15,593 bases of DNA from a virus, in UHGV virus genome UHGV-0078853, one strand, 5' to 3'. Below, piece after piece: positions 1,216-15,593 of this stretch (its first letter is position 1; each line of letters opens with the position of its first letter). Both the position numbers and the translations under genes were made by a program. The notes beneath the pieces are model-generated. The model was given only the letters and a program-made list of their open reading frames with translations, had not been told where the DNA came from and made no database searches.

Positions 1216-1408
1216 CATAGAAACGGCGTAATCTCAGTAAACCAGTTACTTTTTACACAAGCAATAGAGTATGGCCCTTCCGAACGCGTCAGCGTAACTA
1301 CACTCAGGACTTACGTCCCGCTCCGTTACCTGCCCGCGCCGCGGTCGCTTGTTCATACTTCACAAGCTCAGGTGGAGCTTAGCACATTTTTGGTGAAAAG
1401 TCAACTAT
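1216..1408 (-). repeat. copy A of a roughly 190-bp conserved non-coding promoter-leader element (copy B at 12484-12680)
   Basis: Manual alignment with 12484-12680 shows long shared blocks, e.g. caatagag/ctNtggcccttccgaa, aactacactca, ccgcggtcgcttg, cacaagctcag, agcttagcaNattttt, aaaagtcaa. Roughly 75-85 percent identity by eye, direct orientation. Confidence 0.8.
1376..1404 (-). promoter_or_regulatory. putative sigma70-type promoter inside element A (TTGACT-N17-TAAGCT, minus strand)
   Basis: Minus-strand -35 TTGACT at 1404-1399 and -10 TAAGCT at 1381-1376 with a 17-nt spacer. The same hexamers and spacing recur in copy B. The -10 is weak, so strength is uncertain. Confidence 0.4.
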
Positions 1409-1466
1409 TCGAATAGTTTATTCCAACATTTACAATTGAGTGGAATAACTGGAATAATCACAGGCA

Positions 1467-1955: not shown

Positions 1956-3031
1956 TATTCCCCTTTCAGATAATCAGCAACACGTTTATCGAGTTCCGCC
2001 ATCTGCTTAAGCGTGAGCGGATTCCCGAAACCATCTACAGATATTACGCGAAACTCTTCCGGCGATATACCGCTGTTACGGAAAATCTTACCTCGCACCG
2101 GGCCGAGCGCCTGGTCCTGAAACCACGCCGGTTGTTGTTCAAGGAACTCGTAGTAAGTGGTGTCTACGCTTACCTGAGTGCCACCTTCCGCGCCTTTAGC
2201 CGCGCGTTTTGCGCCTTTATCGAGGAAGTCGAACTCGGAACTGATTACCGGAGCCGTGCACGACCGGCAGTTCGGATGGGCAGGGGGCATCGGCCCCTTA
2301 CCAATTTCCCACGTCATCCCGTCTCTGACCCTGCAAATCGTACTGGTGCGGCTGTCAAGCGTTGACACCCACTCGTACTTCTCTATGATGTCGTCGTTCT
2401 GGCGGTACGTCTCGTTACGGGCTTCGTTGGACACGTGAGACAGCGCGGTGCGGATGACGGTAGCGGCGTTACGCTCAGAGATGTCCGCCAGCCCACCGGC
2501 GCCTACTACATTCTTAACAATCTGCCGTGTTGTTTGACCTTGTACAAAGCCCATCTTAACGCCGGTTACAAGACGTGCTACTTCCGTTTCACCCCAACCT
2601 GACATCAGTTTAGTGAAATCAACTGGCTTGCCACTCAATGATAATGGCTGAAACTCAGCAGCGGCCCACACCTGTTCGGCGGTGGGCGTAACAAATTCCG
2701 CATCTACGTTGGCGGTCAGGGTCTTTACGTTCCACTCAGCTTCATACACCGCCAGTTCCTTGAGGTCTTCTGCCAGCTTTGTTTGCCAGTCACCAGTAAG
2801 TCCTGTCAGTACTTCTTCAAGGTCACGTAACAGTTTATTCAGTCGCGCAGTGCTGCGACCGTCGTCGCCGAATAGCAGCACCTGCCGTTTGATTTCGTCC
2901 CGCATCTCCTTAATGAACGGCGCGAGGTCTTTCACCTCACCGGATGCGGTTCGTTGCAGCCATATCTGGTGGCTGATTAGTGATGTAAGTAAGCTCATAG
3001 ATAAACCCTGTGGCGCTAAAGTTAATAGCAT
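1955..3031 (-). CDS. head morphogenesis protein (phage Mu F-like / SPP1 gp7 family)
   Basis: Motifs YEWVSTLDSRTSTICRVRDGMTW and PPAHPNCRSCTAP match the Mu F-like domain; sits immediately downstream of portal. Start is either ATG 3031 (no Shine-Dalgarno) or ATG 2998. Confidence 0.8.
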   Translation of the reverse strand: MLLTLAPQGLSMSLLTSLISHQIWLQRTASGEVKDLAPFIKEMRDEIKRQVLLFGDDGRSTARLNKLLRDLEEVLTGLTGDWQTKLAEDLKELAVYEAEWNVKTLTANVDAEFVTPTAEQVWAAAEFQPLSLSGKPVDFTKLMSGWGETEVARLVTGVKMGFVQGQTTRQIVKNVVGAGGLADISERNAATVIRTALSHVSNEARNETYRQNDDIIEKYEWVSTLDSRTSTICRVRDGMTWEIGKGPMPPAHPNCRSCTAPVISSEFDFLDKGAKRAAKGAEGGTQVSVDTTYYEFLEQQPAWFQDQALGPVRGKIFRNSGISPEEFRVISVDGFGNPLTLKQMAELDKRVADYLKGE

Positions 3032-3041
3032 ACTATAAGAA

Positions 3042-3057
3042 AGCCCCTTTCGGGGCT
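3042..3057 (-). promoter_or_regulatory. hairpin AGCCCC-GAAA-GGGGCU between portal and head morphogenesis genes (terminator-like or stabiliser)
   Basis: Same core stem-loop sequence as the terminator at 1472-1489; on the minus strand it is followed by UUUCUUAUAG. Confidence 0.4.
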
Positions 3058-8072: not shown

Positions 8073-8101
8073 AATATAGTAGGGTCTAGGGTAGTAGTCA
8101 A
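8073..8101 (-). promoter_or_regulatory. near-consensus sigma70-type promoter (TTGACT-N17-TATATT, minus strand)
   Basis: Minus-strand -35 TTGACT at 8101-8096 and -10 TATATT at 8078-8073 with a 17-nt spacer; about 35 nt upstream of the ATG at 8039. Confidence 0.6.
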
Positions 8102-8123
8102 CTAGTCATTGCGGAAGATAGAT

Positions 8124-8155
8124 AAAAAAAATCCCGGCTGGGTCAGGGCCGGGAT
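8124..8155 (-). terminator. strong rho-independent terminator ending the lysis operon
   Basis: 8-bp stem ATCCCGGC/GCCGGGAT with a 9-nt loop, followed on the minus strand by eight U residues (plus-strand A-run 8124-8131). Confidence 0.8.
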
Positions 8156-10336: not shown

Positions 10337-10881
10337 CAGAAGTATTCCCCGCACGTTTTACATACTTTCGTACCGAACGGCGCGGAGCCACCTGTTATTA
10401 CATAATAGAAACTGTGTTTGCACTCCTGTGTACAGGCTGTTGCCCCATACTCAAGTCCGTCCCACTCACGCTTGCCGCATTCGCAGCAAAACCGGCTACC
10501 GGGCACGTTGTCCTTGTGGCCTTCGGCAATAAACAATCCTGGAGTGATAATCCAATTGTGGTCACATTCCTGCGTATCTTCTTTTCGGCAACCAGATTGC
10601 TCCGAACCGTACGCACCTTTGCGGATAAGTTTGTATGCCTCCACGTCACCAGTAGCCTCGACCAATGCCAGATGCAACTCCTTAACTTGCCCTGTCAGGT
10701 GCGATATGTGCTCAGATTTCTTAATGTTGTCTTCCCGCAACTCCTTAATCTGCGCCGACGCATCACGTAACTGATTCTTAAGTGACTGCACCTCATGCGC
10801 CAGGTCTTCGCTCCGGCTGTTATTTACCTGCTGCCGTAGCTGGTAGATCAGGTACTCGAATATTTCGTTTTTGTTACTCAT
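10336..10881 (-). CDS. coiled-coil protein with C-terminal Cys/His-rich (zinc-binding-like) domain (181 aa)
   Basis: Start ATG 10881 (MSNKNEIF...) with an AAGGGG Shine-Dalgarno. N-terminal half is heptad-like and charged; C-terminal half has CDHNW, CCECG, CTQECKH and CKTCG clusters. Confidence 0.6.
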   Translation of the reverse strand: MSNKNEIFEYLIYQLRQQVNNSRSEDLAHEVQSLKNQLRDASAQIKELREDNIKKSEHISHLTGQVKELHLALVEATGDVEAYKLIRKGAYGSEQSGCRKEDTQECDHNWIITPGLFIAEGHKDNVPGSRFCCECGKREWDGLEYGATACTQECKHSFYYVITGGSAPFGTKVCKTCGEYF

Positions 10882-11011
10882 CAGCTTCACCCCTTTTCTC
10901 ATCCACCCCGACTAGCAGCGATTTAGTGTCGCCGTCACACACCGAAGTGCTACTAATTATTTCGTAAGCGTCTACCAGTTCGCCTAAAGTCCAGCTACCG
11001 TACCGGCCCAT
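10874..11011 (-). CDS. hypothetical micro-protein (45 aa)
   Basis: ATG 11011 preceded by an AGGAG Shine-Dalgarno; its stop overlaps the start of the downstream gene; hand-translated. Confidence 0.3.
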   Translation of the reverse strand: MGRYGSWTLGELVDAYEIISSTSVCDGDTKSLLVGVDEKRGEADE

Positions 11012-11041
11012 CTCTGTCTCTCCTCTCGCTTGTGTAAATGA

Positions 11042-11070
11042 ATAGTAGCCTATTCTATCTTAGTGTGCAA
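11042..11070 (-). promoter_or_regulatory. internal promoter, TTGCAC-N17-TACTAT family (minus strand)
   Basis: Minus-strand -35 TTGCAC at 11070-11065 and -10 TACTAT at 11047-11042; same hexamers, spacing and flanking AATAGGnTACTATTCA as the promoter at 12335-12363. Confidence 0.45.
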
Positions 11071-11076
11071 GTAAAT

Positions 11077-11250
11077 TTATTGGTGTGTTATGGAGTCGAT
11101 GAATGCCAGTAACTCCCTTTCCGCTTCTGCCTCTCTTTCTTCAAGCGACCAGGTAGCGGATTCCTCTGTCGCCGTTGCTAAATCGGTTTTCGCATCAACC
11201 ATCGTGTCGATTAACGTGATTAGTCGTTCAGCCTGTTCTTTAGTAATCAT
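11077..11250 (-). CDS. hypothetical small acidic protein (57 aa)
   Basis: ATG 11250 with an AGGAGA Shine-Dalgarno 7 nt upstream; below the track size cut-off. Confidence 0.4.
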   Translation of the reverse strand: MITKEQAERLITLIDTMVDAKTDLATATEESATWSLEEREAEAERELLAFIDSITHQ

Positions 11251-11384
11251 TGTTGCATCTCCTGCAATAGTCGCTTCGATTGTTGCGTTTGATGAAAGTG
11301 TCGCCTTTTGACGACACTAAGTTAAAGTTGTACGCTGCTGTGTGGCAGCGTAAGTCACTCAGTAAAATCCCAAACTATTGAACA

Positions 11385-11585
11385 TCACACTTCTGGCGGC
11401 TCGGGTAACGGCATCCAGTGCGTCACGTACTTATCGTAGTGATTCCAGAAAGGCTTTCTCCCGTCATCAGGAACTATGTAATAATCGTGCTGAACTGCGT
11501 TATTTAACGTTTCATACACCAGGAACTCTTTATCCGTATACCCATTACCCGGCAGCATCTCACTACACTTAATCCACTCACCCAT
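11385..11585 (-). CDS. DUF551-like phage protein (66 aa)
   Basis: N-terminal WIKCSEMLPG and C-terminal VTHWMPLPEPP match the DUF551 pattern common in phage early regions; ATG 11585 with an AGAGGTG Shine-Dalgarno. Confidence 0.65.
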   Translation of the reverse strand: MGEWIKCSEMLPGNGYTDKEFLVYETLNNAVQHDYYIVPDDGRKPFWNHYDKYVTHWMPLPEPPEV

Positions 11586-11733
11586 ACCTCACACCTCTTT
11601 CAATCAAGGATTGCACACCAGCTTTCCACGCCCGCCACGCGAGACGCGTCTTAACGTTCAGGTACTCTTTCTTTGAACCCTTGTTAACCGGCAGACCCTC
11701 GACCACAGCCCACCGTTCAAATGCTTCTCTCAT
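11578..11733 (-). CDS. hypothetical small protein (51 aa)
   Basis: ATG 11733 overlaps the upstream stop (ATGA); translation MREAFERWAVVEGLPVNKGSKKEYLNVKTRLAWRAWKAG...; stop overlaps the next start. Confidence 0.4.
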   Translation of the reverse strand: MREAFERWAVVEGLPVNKGSKKEYLNVKTRLAWRAWKAGVQSLIERGVRYG

Positions 11734-11908
11734 ACCAGAACCTCACATTCATCCAGATACACGAACAATAACGACCCTTTGTACTCAATCATAAAACCAT
11801 AATGGTTGATGCTGAACGCCGGAAAAACATCACCTACCGAGATACCGAAATCTATAAGCCTGCGGTCAGTTATACGGACAAGCCTGCGGTCAGTTATACG
11901 GATTCGCA
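11730..11908 (-). CDS. hypothetical protein with internal 8-aa tandem duplication (59 aa)
   Basis: Likely start ATG 11908 (GGGAGG upstream); N-terminus MRIRITDRRLVRITDRRLIDFG encoded by a 24-bp tandem repeat. Confidence 0.5.
11857..11904. repeat. 24-bp tandem direct repeat, 2 copies (22/24 identical)
   Basis: agcctgcggtcagttatacggaca followed immediately by agcctgcggtcagttatacggatt; in-frame within the CDS 11730-11908. Confidence 0.9.
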
Positions 11909-12109
11909 TTAACGGCAACCTCCCTCAGAGTCGTCGGCACAAGCATCACGATTCGATGCCGTTTTGATTGCCTGTAAGCTATTTAGCATTTGCTGGCTAT
12001 CCATCGTAATAATTGTAATCCCGTCTGATAAATGCACCTCGTAGCGTTCAGCTACGAAATATATTTCCTCGAAATCATGATGTTTCAGTTCTTCAAATAA
12101 TTCTTCCAT
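11909..12109 (-). CDS. hypothetical acidic protein (66 aa)
   Basis: ATG 12109 with an AAGGGG Shine-Dalgarno; overlaps the upstream stop (TGATG). Confidence 0.5.
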   Translation of the reverse strand: MEELFEELKHHDFEEIYFVAERYEVHLSDGITIITMDSQQMLNSLQAIKTASNRDACADDSEGGCR

Positions 12110-12300
12110 CACTTCGCCCCTTTAAATTTAAAATTGTTGCCGATGAGTTTTAAGTTCTCCTCTTCTACGTATATTTGTGAATTTACCCCTCTCACCTTTT
12201 GCACGGTCACTACGTACTCACCGGGAAATAAATTAGATTTTAATTCAATTATGCCGTGTTCACCGTCGGCGCATTTAACCAACTGACCATTCTTAAACAT
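12109..12300 (-). CDS. hypothetical protein (63 aa), first gene of the leftward early operon
   Basis: ATG 12300 (or GTG 12309) with a GGAG Shine-Dalgarno; translation MFKNGQLVKCADGEHGIIELKSN... Confidence 0.5.
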   Translation of the reverse strand: MFKNGQLVKCADGEHGIIELKSNLFPGEYVVTVQKVRGVNSQIYVEEENLKLIGNNFKFKGAK

Positions 12301-12334
12301 AACCCTCACTCCTCTGTCTCGTTCCGATAAGTGA

Positions 12335-12363
12335 ATAGTATCCTATTATGTTGGGGCGTGCAA
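12335..12363 (-). promoter_or_regulatory. promoter proximal to the early-left operon, TTGCAC-N17-TACTAT (minus strand)
   Basis: Minus-strand -35 TTGCAC at 12363-12358 and -10 TACTAT at 12340-12335; dyad AATAG-N4-CTATT overlaps the -10. Confidence 0.5.
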
Positions 12364-12422
12364 GAGATTAGTTACGTTGCCGTTGTGATTCTTTCGTTTC
12401 TTAAAGGAGTACGCAACGCAGT

Positions 12423-12442
12423 GGGTGGGCGTTAGCCCACCC
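12423..12442. promoter_or_regulatory. stable GC hairpin GGGTGGGC-gtta-GCCCACCC in the early-left leader
   Basis: 8-bp perfect stem with no adjacent U-tract on either strand; lies between element B and the proximal promoter. Confidence 0.45.
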
Positions 12443-12483
12443 CAGCGGAGTGAAGTACTCTCTACCTCACTCACTCACGGCAA

Positions 12484-12680
12484 CTATAGAAACTTTTAAT
12501 TATCAGTGACTTGGGTATTTAGGCGGGATTAACAATAGACTTTGGCCCTTCCGAAAGCGCCAGCGGAACTACACTCAAGTGCCTAATGGCACGCGTTGCG
12601 TTCCCTGCCGCTCCGCGGTCGCTTGCGATATCTCACAAGCTCAGTGAAGCTTAGCATATTTTTAAGTAAAAGTCAATACT
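12484..12680 (-). repeat. copy B of the conserved promoter-leader element
   Basis: See 1216-1408; same blocks in the same order and orientation. Confidence 0.8.
12648..12676 (-). promoter_or_regulatory. putative promoter inside element B (TTGACT-N17-TAAGCT, minus strand)
   Basis: Minus-strand -35 at 12676-12671 and -10 at 12653-12648; identical architecture to the copy-A promoter. Confidence 0.4.
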
Positions 12681-12723
12681 AGTAGCATCTTTTGTATCTT
12701 AGTAACTTTGTGTGGTGTTTTGG

Positions 12724-12752
12724 TTGCTTTTACAAAGTTACCGCCTTATACT
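12724..12752 (+). promoter_or_regulatory. putative rightward promoter for the replication operon (TTGCTT-N17-TATACT)
   Basis: -35 at 12724-12729 and -10 at 12747-12752; AGGAGA Shine-Dalgarno and ATG 12782 lie downstream. Confidence 0.45.
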
Positions 12753-12781
12753 TAGGTACATCTTACATAGGAGAACGTGAA

Positions 12782-12952
12782 ATGACTATCAATGAAGTAG
12801 CTGAACGTATTGGGGTGACACGTCAGACAATTAATAACTGGATTAAGAGTGGAAAGTTTCCTGATTGCAGCGTTAAAGTAATGGGTCGCCGGATGCCGGG
12901 GACATTTGACCGTAATAAAGTTGAAGCGTGGATTAAGGAGAATGTGAAATGA
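12782..12952 (+). CDS. AlpA/excisionase-type helix-turn-helix DNA-binding protein (56 aa)
   Basis: MTINEVAERIGVTRQTINNWIKSGKFPDCSVKVMGRRMPGTFDRNKVEAWIKE matches the AlpA-family HTH pattern. Real start is ATG 12782 with AGGAGA, not the track start at 12692. Confidence 0.75.
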   Translation: MTINEVAERIGVTRQTINNWIKSGKFPDCSVKVMGRRMPGTFDRNKVEAWIKENVK

Positions 12953-13296: not shown

Positions 13297-14238
13297 ATGT
13301 CCGATGTAATTTTATCCTACTCGTGGTCGCGTCGCAACGCGCGGGCTGAGAAAAAGGATATAAACGTCAGAACCACACACACGGCAACACTGGACGACCT
13401 GAAAGAGTTAATCCAGCCACTCGATGCTGTCCGTGACGGAATTAACCCGAAGACCGCGCCCGGTTATATCACCGCCGCGTGCGACTCGACGCACAGCACT
13501 GTAAAAGACCCGGAAACCGGCGACTTTAAGCAAGCGCGTAAAGGCTTTTTCTATCGCTGTGACGCGTCTGTAAGCAAATCGTCGCTGGCGTATCTGGACT
13601 TCGACAGCGCAACACCAGAAGAGTATCAGGAAGCGGTGCGCTTAGTTAAACGCAGCCGCCGGGGCATGTGTATCTATACCACGGCATCACATACCGACGA
13701 GTCCCCGCGCTTTCGCGTCGTCATGCCGCTGGCCCGTCCGGTTGAAGGTGGTGACATTATCCGTGTTCGTCACGGCTTGCTCGAGCACTTCTTCAAAGGC
13801 ATGGGTGCTGACCGCAGCGGGTTCACTCTGTCACAGCCGATGTATCTGCCGCCGGTTGGCGCTACTGTTATCTGGTCGCGTCGCAACGACCTGATTGACC
13901 CGGACGAGTTACTGGAAGGCATCCCCGCCGTTGACGTTAGCAGCGCATCGGATTACCAGATACCGAAAGAACTGCGAACAGCGTTTACCGATGCGTTTGA
14001 AGCACTGGCGTTCGAGTACGGCGGTATTATGACCCCGCGCGGCCTTAAGATGCCCGCTACGCCGGAACACGCCGAGAACTACAGCGACCCGACACCGCGC
14101 CCGGATGACTTCCTGCTGTGCTTCCCGCGCGAGGGATATGAAGCGCCTAACGTAACCATGATTCACGACACCGACATTACGGCGACCGAGGGCATGTCAC
14201 CGAAAGAGGTGTGGAAGTATGCGGCTGCCGTTCAGTGA
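13297..14238 (+). CDS. replication protein, possible primase or primase-polymerase (313 aa)
   Basis: GAGGGA Shine-Dalgarno; contains LAYLDFDS (DxD-like) and YTTASHTDE (S-H) motifs reminiscent of AEP-type primases, and sits directly upstream of a RecA-fold ATPase. Family assignment is tentative. Confidence 0.4.
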   Translation: MSDVILSYSWSRRNARAEKKDINVRTTHTATLDDLKELIQPLDAVRDGINPKTAPGYITAACDSTHSTVKDPETGDFKQARKGFFYRCDASVSKSSLAYLDFDSATPEEYQEAVRLVKRSRRGMCIYTTASHTDESPRFRVVMPLARPVEGGDIIRVRHGLLEHFFKGMGADRSGFTLSQPMYLPPVGATVIWSRRNDLIDPDELLEGIPAVDVSSASDYQIPKELRTAFTDAFEALAFEYGGIMTPRGLKMPATPEHAENYSDPTPRPDDFLLCFPREGYEAPNVTMIHDTDITATEGMSPKEVWKYAAAVQ

Positions 14239-15568
14239 AGTCGCAGAGGCCATCGGTTGGGGTGCACGTGAATCTGTTTCTTGCAGCCTGGACGACCTTG
14301 AAGACGACGAGGACTCAGAGGAGGACGAGTTACCGGAACCGGTAAAGGCTGATTTCGTCGTTGAAGGGTACATGCCGTCGGATTGCATATGGGATATCGT
14401 CGGGGAGTCCGGTACGTATAAATCCTTCTATACGCTGGGGATGATGTACCTGAGCGCCACCGGATACCGGTTTGCGGGTGCTGACACCCAGCGTTGCCAC
14501 CATTTCTATATCGACGGTGAAGGCGGCGCAGCTACCCGCACCCGTATCGATGCGCTCGCGGCTAAATATGGCGAGGAAGGTAAAGATTATGTACATGTTA
14601 TAGACATGGGTGAAATACTCGGTATGCGAGAGGATAAAAAACTTACAGCACTCATCCGTATGATGCGTGAAACAGCAGGAGAGGAACCGATCGGTATGAT
14701 TGCGTTCGATACCCTCAACCAGACGCTGGCCCTGACGATTGATAAGTTTGATGAGAACAGTTCATCAACTGCAATCGGCATGGGTAAAGTCATCGCTATC
14801 CTTAAAAAAGCGCGTGACGCGACTAAAGCTGCGGTAGGCGTTGTACACCATACACCGAAGGGCGGAAAGAAAGCCCGAGGTAGTGGTGCGCTGTACGCTG
14901 GCGTCGATGTGGAGCTGACAATCGAACGCGCGACAGACCGTCAGATAAATGTATACCACTCTAAATTTAAGCATGGGCCGCAACAGAAGACGGTTGGTAT
15001 GGTGCTTGAGTCGGTACAGTTCCGCGAAGCCCCGCCACCGAAAGAATACCGCGCGGTTGAGTTCCTCGGTAGCACAGAGGAATACGGCACAACCGTTAAC
15101 CTCGACCTGCCTGAGCCGCACAAAGCGCTTGTGCTTATGCCGTGGGGCTTCGAACCGTTCAAGACCGACGAGGAGAAAGAGCGGGAAGAAGGACTGACTA
15201 AGGAAGGTAAAGAAAACGTACGTAGAACCATGGAGAACGCCGTCAACAGTTCGGAAGCCACGATACTGGCGGCGTTTGAACTGGCGGAAGGAACCTACAA
15301 CGGCAACGAAGGTATCACGGTAGCCGCGGCAAATAAGCTCGCACAGTCTGACCCCAACGCGAAGGCGTTCAACTCCAAAGAAGTCATAGAACGCGGAAAG
15401 ATTAAGAAAATGGTTGAGGCGGGGTATCTTGTACCTGGTACGGACGAAAACAATCAGATAATCCCGGGCCGTTACAGATTGAATACCCGAATAACGGACA
15501 ACAAGATTCCGAAGACAATATACGAACCGAATGAAATGCTGACAGTGACAGAGGAGGATTTGGAATAG
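14219..15568 (+). CDS. RecA-fold replicative ATPase/helicase, AAA_25/DnaB-like (449 aa)
   Basis: P-loop-like GESGTYKS, acidic linker DDLEDDEDSEEDE, Walker B-like MIAFDTL and the VGVVHHTPKGG motif typical of this helicase family; ATG 14219 with an AAGAGGTG Shine-Dalgarno. Confidence 0.7.
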   Translation: MRLPFSEVAEAIGWGARESVSCSLDDLEDDEDSEEDELPEPVKADFVVEGYMPSDCIWDIVGESGTYKSFYTLGMMYLSATGYRFAGADTQRCHHFYIDGEGGAATRTRIDALAAKYGEEGKDYVHVIDMGEILGMREDKKLTALIRMMRETAGEEPIGMIAFDTLNQTLALTIDKFDENSSSTAIGMGKVIAILKKARDATKAAVGVVHHTPKGGKKARGSGALYAGVDVELTIERATDRQINVYHSKFKHGPQQKTVGMVLESVQFREAPPPKEYRAVEFLGSTEEYGTTVNLDLPEPHKALVLMPWGFEPFKTDEEKEREEGLTKEGKENVRRTMENAVNSSEATILAAFELAEGTYNGNEGITVAAANKLAQSDPNAKAFNSKEVIERGKIKKMVEAGYLVPGTDENNQIIPGRYRLNTRITDNKIPKTIYEPNEMLTVTEEDLE

Positions 15569-15579
15569 GTAAAAATAAA

Positions 15580-15593
15580 GGGGCGTTAAGCCC
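15580..15593 (+). terminator. probable terminator hairpin, truncated by the window edge
   Basis: GGGGC-gttaa-GCCC... begins 12 nt after the stop at 15568; the 3' arm and any U-tract fall outside the window. Confidence 0.3.

Follow-up and report, generated by a model that had tools for sequence, protein, structure and literature searches.

Operators of phage 434 are 14-bp dyads with a 5-4-5 layout, in which about five bases are contacted in each arm and the four central bases are free. The present analysis concerns a dyad, AATAG-N4-CTATT, that lies on two putative leftward promoters, named here PL1 and PL2, in a 15,593-nucleotide stretch of the virus genome UHGV-0078853. This whole 15.6-kb stretch is referred to below as the window. 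With moderate confidence, and on the basis of sequence comparisons, we favour the reading that PL1 and PL2 are overlapped by an operator bound by a Cro-like phage protein and are part of a regulon of 7-8 promoters. The window is ~93% identical to genomes of Kagunavirus (Guernseyvirinae; K1G/K1H/K1ind-like lytic siphophages of E. coli) and, by this similarity, belongs to a Kagunavirus, a lytic E. coli phage. No match to it, promoter region included, was found among 5,426 complete E. coli genomes, which ruled out a prophage or host origin.

Elements placed over promoters have also been described in another context. AlpA of P. aeruginosa, a protein of at least 142 residues with an N-terminal ring, acts as a monomer on an asymmetric 6-bp element, the ABE, and needs a sigma-dependent pause (PMC9371919). 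As to the present motif, seven promoters were predicted with PHIRE in phage Golestan (PMC7203180; Sci Rep 2020, Suppl. Table S4), and Golestan's TAATAGGATACTATTCACTT and GAATAGGCTACTATTCATTT are the two sites of the window. Seven PHIRE promoters with the consensus tgAATAGTa-ccTATTat-T were reported for phage fBC-Eco01 and attributed to a phage RNA polymerase (PMC9825357; Arch Virol 2023, Suppl. Table S2). Both papers give the 20-mers only as conserved or phage RNA polymerase promoters and mention no -35/-10 elements, dyad, registers or regulator. Likewise, no description of the dyad, its two registers, a regulator or transcriptomics for the Guernseyvirinae was found in the literature searched. 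The repeated motif is thus already on record and the type of circuit is familiar, while the operator-regulon reading is new for this phage group.

The two putative leftward promoters PL1 and PL2

The arrangement TTGCAC-N17-TACTAT occurs exactly twice in the window, both times on the minus strand: as TTGCAC-GCCCCAACATAATAGGA-TACTAT at 12363..12335 (PL1) and as TTGCAC-ACTAAGATAGAATAGGC-TACTAT at 11070..11042 (PL2). The identical hexamers and 17-nt spacing reported in the initial annotation are exact in both copies. The shared 20-mer AATAGGnTACTATTCAyTTA, reported there as well, is present without mismatch at 12347..12328 and 11054..11035, against 0.01 occurrences expected from shuffled sequences, and no third copy was found in the window with up to 3 mismatches allowed. 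It contains the dyad AATAG-N4-CTATT over the -10 hexamer, as had been described, at 12334-12347 in PL1 and 11041-11054 in PL2, and the dyad spans about -19 to -6 in both promoters. With at most one mismatch allowed, the window contains 4 dyads against 0.33 expected; the shuffles ruled out a chance origin of the motif. The similarity between PL1 and PL2 was delimited by a repeat finder as 48 nt at 71% identity.

PL1 heads the leftward early operon, inside which PL2 is located. The ATG codons at 12300 and 11011 are located 30-34 nt downstream of the respective dyads, after ribosome-binding sites (RBS) of the GAGGAG type, and begin genes whose orthologous coding sequences are annotated in relatives; in phage ULINTec2, these are found at 16977-17168 for the 63-amino-acid (aa) gene behind PL1 and at 15721-15849 for the 45-aa open reading frame (ORF) behind PL2. 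Transcription from PL1 would start near A12328, giving a leader of 28 nt to the ATG at 12300, and transcription from PL2 would start near A11035. Both sites thus combine -35/-10-like hexamers at suitable spacing, A-11 and T-7 with a correctly oriented gene preceded by a leader and an RBS. From these features we infer promoter activity, and PL1 and PL2 are in all likelihood promoters of the host sigma-70 type.

Two further observations concern the promoter-plus-leader cassettes. Homology to relatives breaks off at their edges, at window positions ~11009 and ~12394, and a 72-nt island around PL1 retains 90% identity in Salmonella Jerseyviruses; the cassettes may be junctions for the exchange of early-gene modules. 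Many of the leaders (11012-11034 and 12301-12327 on the minus strand of the window, 34620-34653 in phage P AB-2017, and others) share a motif of the (A)ACGAGAGGAG/ACACCAACAAT type around the RBS, which is found with both of the promoter classes described below and in Jerseyvirus.

A dyad family on Guernseyvirinae promoters

The check for whole-genome enrichment of the motif proposed in the initial annotation was run on the complete genomes of the close relatives P AB-2017 (L001) and ULINTec2 (L002). Each contains 6 exact copies of AATAG-N4-CTATT against 0.02 expected. In a de novo search over all 5+5 dyads with spacers of 0-8 nt, this dyad was the commonest of all, ranking top in four genomes or loci. 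Every one of these copies is placed on a -35/-10 pair, with an annotated gene 30-45 nt further downstream.

The sites fall into two promoter classes. In class I (TTGCAC-N17-TACTAT), the dyad lies over the -10 hexamer; PL1, PL2 and the promoter of the sie/phosphoesterase/kinase operon belong to this class, and a copy with one mismatch lies over the extended -10 promoter (TGGTACTAT) of a small XRE gene. Among the unique class I sites of the relatives, TTGCAC is found at 17-nt spacing in 58 out of 70 and TACTAT in all 70. In class II (TTGAC[AG]-N17/18-TATAGT), the dyad lies within the spacer (TGAATAGTnnGCTATTATAGTT), and the members are three rightward promoters located before the nuclease, DNA polymerase and helicase operons. 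The centre of the dyad is at about -12.5 in class I, about -18.5 in class II and about -15.5 at the sie promoter of the Jerseyvirus SETP7. In addition, the 18-bp form TGAATAG-N4-CTATTAT faces one way with respect to transcription in class I and the other way in class II. The different registers argue against a fixed polymerase-recognition element.

Around the XRE gene, 38 Kagunavirus loci were fetched, and each of them has 2-6 exact copies of the dyad. A scan of a viral contig collection for AATAGNNTACTATTCA was uninformative; the matches listed were mostly single, apparently chance occurrences in unrelated contigs, and among them two together were seen only in Kagunavirus-sized contigs. Within the early-left region, the number of dyads varies between 2 and 3 among relatives. 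Some of these have a third exact dyad (AATAGGTTACTATT) between PL1 and PL2 (L009 at 14595, L025 at 14750, L027 at 14567, L028 at 14662 and L031 at 13351), which is without a TTGCAC -35 hexamer and adjoins a GCTGCT..AGCAGC hairpin. Its counterpart in the window, at 11364-11381, has decayed to AATAG-TTTG-GGATT.

The conservation of seven sites was then measured in orthologues picked by BLAST and not by motif, with 15-35 unique sequences per alignment. Invariant columns made up 90% of the dyad arms, 86% of the -10 hexamer and 81% of the -35 hexamer, as against 15% of the central N4, 42% of the rest of the spacer and 45-52% of the flanks. Such a pattern is the footprint expected of a dyad contacted at its arms and not at its centre. 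The left arm lies outside any sigma-70 element in both classes. The dyad is therefore probably a separate protein-binding operator, beyond the promoter itself.

Other lineages of the subfamily carry the same dyad or a changed one. In SETP7, (T)AATAG-N4-CTATT(A) occurs in 5 exact copies (0.04 expected) and 1 near copy at orthologous promoters, with different central bases, and the same dyad is present in a lineage (L039) whose XRE protein is 77% identical. The Pantoea phage AH01 has AATAC-N4-GTATT in a matching layout that includes TTGCAC-N17 at the sie-position promoter and two sites around the XRE gene; its exact sites number 5 and its near sites another 5, where 0.89 would be expected. In the Cornellviruses St162 and VSiP, TATTA-N6-TAATA stands at three orthologous promoters. 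The initial annotation had suggested a common operator across several leftward promoters. The common operator gains support from the top rank of the dyad, its constant location on promoters, its varied registers, its conserved arms and its recurrence in other lineages, but the restriction to leftward promoters has to be given up: members outside the window include the rightward replication promoters, the promoter of the sie operon and that of the regulator itself.

Candidate binder, proposed circuit and competing explanations

The right end of the window, ggggcgTTAagccc, corresponds to 34307-34320 of P AB-2017 and cuts an XRE gene, the rest of which lies immediately past this end. Its 71-aa product matches the Pfam helix-turn-helix (HTH) domain HTH_3 (E 1e-12), and its best match in the PDB is 434 Cro, over residues 6-68 (E 1.7e-7) and of equal length. 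The control region of the XRE gene contains two sites 45 bp apart, an imperfect one over its own extended -10 promoter and another over the divergent promoter. The own-promoter site is imperfect also in Jerseyvirus and AH01, which fits autoregulation at a higher threshold. The homologue in AH01 is 44% identical, and the XRE proteins of the lineages with a changed half-site (AH01, Cornellvirus) are 39-44% identical. Two features that characterize Cro/CI-type control are found here, namely 14-18-bp dyads that overlap promoters in several copies and a phage HTH_3/XRE gene with sites in its own control region. The 71-aa 434-Cro-like XRE protein appears to be the likeliest binder of the operator, a choice we hold with some but no great confidence, and it is a better candidate than the AlpA-like or AP2-like proteins named as possible regulators in the initial annotation.

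The regulon would comprise PL1, PL2, the sie/phosphoesterase promoter, the XRE gene's own promoter and the three rightward promoters for replication and DNA metabolism. Host sigma-70 polymerase would fire PL1, PL2 and the class II promoters early in infection. The Cro-like dimer would then accumulate, occupy the operators over the -10 hexamer or the spacer and exclude RNA polymerase. The early-left, sie and replication operons, that is early and middle transcription, would be turned down as the protein builds up, as by Cro in lambdoid phages; this direction of regulation we infer from the position of the sites. At higher concentration, the XRE protein would also repress its own promoter through the weaker, imperfect site. 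The promoters without a good site are the candidate promoter of the AlpA-like/primase operon (TTGCTT-N17-TATACT, 12724-12752, without a dyad), the promoters of two RNA-like repeats and the post-terminator promoter at 8101..8073.

Several observations weigh against this circuit or parts of it. No terminator was detected between PL2 and the downstream lysis genes, so that a simple early shut-off would lower lysis transcription too, barring another promoter. TTGCAC/TACTAT matches the consensus at 7 of 12 positions only (TTG, T-12, A-11 and T-7 are kept), and for this reason a generic promoter scan did not list PL1 and PL2. The conservation of the right arm in class I is confounded by its overlap with the -10 hexamer. 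The residues of the XRE recognition helix are SQGAINQ in Kagunavirus and SQSLITH in Jerseyvirus with identical dyad arms, and the Jerseyvirus residues resemble those of Cornellvirus (TQSAISH), which has a different dyad; protein and DNA thus do not covary cleanly, and helix covariation as a proof for the XRE binder was dropped. The Hafnia phage TS33, with an XRE protein of 38% identity, gave no clear dyad family. The literature searched contained no experimental transcription starts, protein-binding data or 5'-end data for Guernseyvirinae. Finally, a 56-aa AlpA-like protein was found only in Kagunavirus- and Jerseyvirus-like records (443), a distribution that matches that of the AATAG dyad.

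The operator might accordingly be real and be bound by this AlpA-like/Xis-like protein, the product of the first rightward early gene, which would repress or modulate the dyad promoters. The protein is a DNA-binding HTH protein, its own candidate promoter has no dyad, and it is ~80% identical between Kagunavirus and Jerseyvirus and absent, on direct search, from Cornellvirus St162, where the dyad differs. Its nearest relatives, however, are of the excisionase winged-helix type (the PHROG 'excisionase and transcriptional regulator' and a weak PDB match to mycobacteriophage Xis Gp37). Proteins of this type generally bind direct repeats rather than symmetric dyads. With 56 aa, it also has no evident dimerisation domain. 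Moreover, dyad-on-promoter systems exist in Cornellvirus despite the absence noted above, and in AH01, which is probably without the protein: the phage collection gave no match beyond Kagunavirus- and Jerseyvirus-like records, although the AH01 genome itself was not searched directly. This makes the AlpA-like protein an unlikely binder. AlpA-type antitermination was ruled out by the size of the protein and the symmetry of the site.

Slightly less probable still is that the dyad is incidental to a duplicated or recombining promoter cassette, which would have no dedicated regulator and would be kept as a good promoter plus leader and as a crossover point. PL1 and the sie promoter are identical at 36 of 38 positions from -36 to +3, the homology breakpoints coincide with the cassette edges, the leaders share a AACGAGAGGAG-type motif, and the dyad number is variable, as noted above. 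Duplication alone, however, explains neither the presence of the dyad in the TTGACA-N17-TATAGT class, with unrelated flanks and in another register, nor the conservation of the arms while the centre and the remaining spacer vary, nor the same geometry with a changed half-site in AH01. The attribution made in the two genome papers (PMC7203180, PMC9825357), where the 20-mers are predicted phage promoters, would make the motif a polymerase-recognition element, either a phage-specific promoter or a site for host polymerase modified by a phage factor. We consider this very unlikely, as PHIRE detects repeated 20-mers only, the complete genomes of P AB-2017, ULINTec2 and SETP7 have no annotated gene for a phage RNA polymerase, and the motif takes two to three registers relative to the sigma-70-like hexamers and both orientations relative to transcription. 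Binding by an E. coli transcription factor, the host regulator allowed for in the initial annotation, seems hardly credible: the half-site changes between phage lineages (AATAG in phages of E. coli and Salmonella, TATTA in the Cornellviruses of Salmonella and AATAC in AH01, a Pantoea phage) although the hosts are closely related enterobacteria, and the promoter region itself gave no match in the E. coli genomes. We know of no E. coli factor with an AATAG-N4-CTATT consensus. A MerR-type spacer operator was ruled out because the spacers are 17-18 nt and not over-long (19-20 bp), and a role as RNA hairpin or cruciform was dismissed because the stems consist of 5 A/T-rich bp only.

The reading in which the Cro-like XRE protein acts on the dyads may be extended, speculatively and with little confidence, to the obligately lytic Guernseyvirinae as a whole. 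Nearly all of their early and middle transcription would then be under one Cro-only repressor, with a half-site that has been switched between lineages (AATAG, AATAC, TATTA) like the immunity specificities of temperate phages. If so, an infected cell would shut the early promoters of a superinfecting phage within its own specificity group only, and virulent phages would in that case fall into 'immunity groups' defined by their repressors.

Neighbouring features and comparison with known systems

The genes on the minus strand run leftwards from 12309 and comprise small early ORFs, holins and lysin, further small ORFs, and the terminase, portal and head genes. On the plus strand, the AlpA-like HTH gene, from 12782, is followed by the primase-helicase. 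The region 12310-12780 is therefore a divergent control region. No RNA family of the Rfam type and no tRNA was found near the promoters. The primase-helicase is present as two overlapping plus-strand ORFs, 13297-14238 (313 aa) and 14219-15568 (449 aa), whereas relatives have one gene of ~750 aa (32037-34295 in P AB-2017); the split could be a frameshift, a sequencing error or real. The small minus-strand ORF 11730..11918 contains a 23-nt exact tandem repeat (11856-11878 and 11880-11902, offset 24 nt), by which eight codons are duplicated. The positions of the main features are listed in Table 1, in which the scores are those of a position weight matrix (PWM); the best score over 100 shuffles was 17.7.

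Table 1. Positions of promoter elements, putative operators, genes and doubtful sites in the window
Feature	Position	Strand	Basis or remark
PL1 -35 hexamer TTGCAC	12358..12363	-	sequence
PL1 -10 hexamer TACTAT	12335..12340	-	sequence
PL1 putative operator, 18-bp form, + strand TGAATAGTATCCTATTAT	12332..12349	.	PWM 24.0; arms invariant in 35 orthologues
First gene of the leftward early operon, MFKNGQL..., 63 aa, GAGGAG/GAGGG RBS	12109..12300	-	ORF
PL2 (internal promoter) -35 hexamer TTGCAC	11065..11070	-	sequence
PL2 -10 hexamer TACTAT	11042..11047	-	sequence
PL2 putative operator, + strand TGAATAGTAGCCTATTCT	11039..11056	.	PWM 19.8; kept in 29 unique orthologues
45-aa ORF MGRYGSW..., start 30 nt downstream of the PL2 dyad	10874..11011	-	ORF
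AlpA-like/Xis-like HTH_17 gene, 56 aa, rival candidate binder	12782..12952	+	ORF, domain match
Last codons and stop of the XRE/434-Cro-like gene (71 aa), truncated at the right end of the window	15586..15593	-	match to P AB-2017
Doubtful site AATAG-TTGA-CTTTT, 1 mismatch, over the -35 of the promoter of the copy-A RNA-like element	1394..1411	.	PWM 11.6, within shuffle range; not counted
Doubtful site ACTAG-TTGA-CTACT, 2 mismatches, over the -35 (TTGACT) of promoter 8101..8073	8091..8108	.	not counted

Two further places had been linked to the motif in the initial annotation. The palindrome CTATTCGAATAG at 1405-1416 is present, but it is not a copy of the element since its arms are swapped (CTATT..AATAG with a 2-nt gap); its right half is the left arm of the doubtful site at 1394..1411. 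The promoter at 8073-8101 does contain CTACTATATTTAC, but the 'TACTAT' there is TATTAT in P AB-2017, ULINTec2 and SETP7. This promoter is a consensus match in the generic scan. The doubtful site over its -35 hexamer has a PWM score of 4.9 in the window, 10.6 in P AB-2017 and 16.9 in SETP7, and reads ACTAG-TTGA-CTATT (1 mismatch) in most Kagunaviruses and AATAG-TTGA-CTAGT in SETP7. Both places hold at most degenerate half-sites over -35 boxes. A third candidate, TATAG-TATG-CTATT at 3022-3039, is PHIRE-listed in Golestan and has a borderline PWM score of 16.8; it was rejected as a member because conservation is lacking in the left arm (TGTAG in ULINTec2). It is located directly after a terminator hairpin (3057..3042) and before a head-morphogenesis gene, and overlaps a possible extended -10 (TGcTATTAA).

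On the minus strand, a hairpin with a T8 tail at 8122-8150 is followed directly by TTGACT-N17-TATATT at 8073-8101. This terminator-then-promoter arrangement is kept in Jerseyvirus, Cornellvirus and the Pantoea phage AH01 and is probably the start of the late transcription unit. An element of ~145 nt is repeated on the minus strand at 1262-1404 (copy A) and 12533-12676 (copy B). Each copy consists of a near-consensus promoter (TTGACT-N17 with TGc-TAAGCT) and then a GC-rich segment with a long stem, in which 3 base pairs are preserved via two-sided changes among the three copies compared. It has no match in Rfam, copy B is absent from P AB-2017, and the element is a candidate phage non-coding RNA.

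Phages of the genera Kagunavirus and Jerseyvirus, which have been isolated widely, are proposed for use in therapy and food safety, and nothing was found on the timing of their gene expression. The operator reading would provide a wiring diagram for them, in which a candidate repressor of 71 aa would act through a 14-bp operator at about seven named promoters. It would also correct the published label of 'phage RNA polymerase promoter', which probably does not apply because no such polymerase is annotated and the position and orientation of the motif are not fixed. It might likewise explain why a conserved 'repressor-like' gene, sometimes taken as a warning of lysogeny, is present in phages that have no such module. 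The lineage-specific half-sites would constitute a small natural system for the study of drift in repressor/operator specificity.

Among known systems, the loading sites of Q and AlpA (QBE, ABE) are similar in that an element between or over the -35 and -10 heads a long, terminator-containing operon, and here an 'AlpA-like' gene adjoins it; unlike AlpA and the ABE, however, the present locus has a symmetric dyad and a 56-aa protein of the HTH_17/excisionase type. The closer parallel is phage 434, from which the present system differs in several respects. In contrast to 434 and the lambdoids, the phages of this group are considered virulent and have neither a CI partner nor an integrase or lysogeny module. 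Single sites are dispersed over 7-8 promoters, whereas 434 has two clusters of three, and the half-site is AATAG, where binding is predicted from sequence, as compared to ACAAG in 434. As in 434 Cro, the candidate regulator is a 71-aa single-domain HTH_3 protein, which aligns with 434 Cro over nearly its full length. The sites share with the 434 operators a dyad symmetry over 14 bp, arms of ~5 bp, a variable centre of 4 bases and an overlap with the -10 or the spacer in sigma-70 promoters, and, again as in 434, the gene of the putative regulator is located at a divergent promoter region with two sites.

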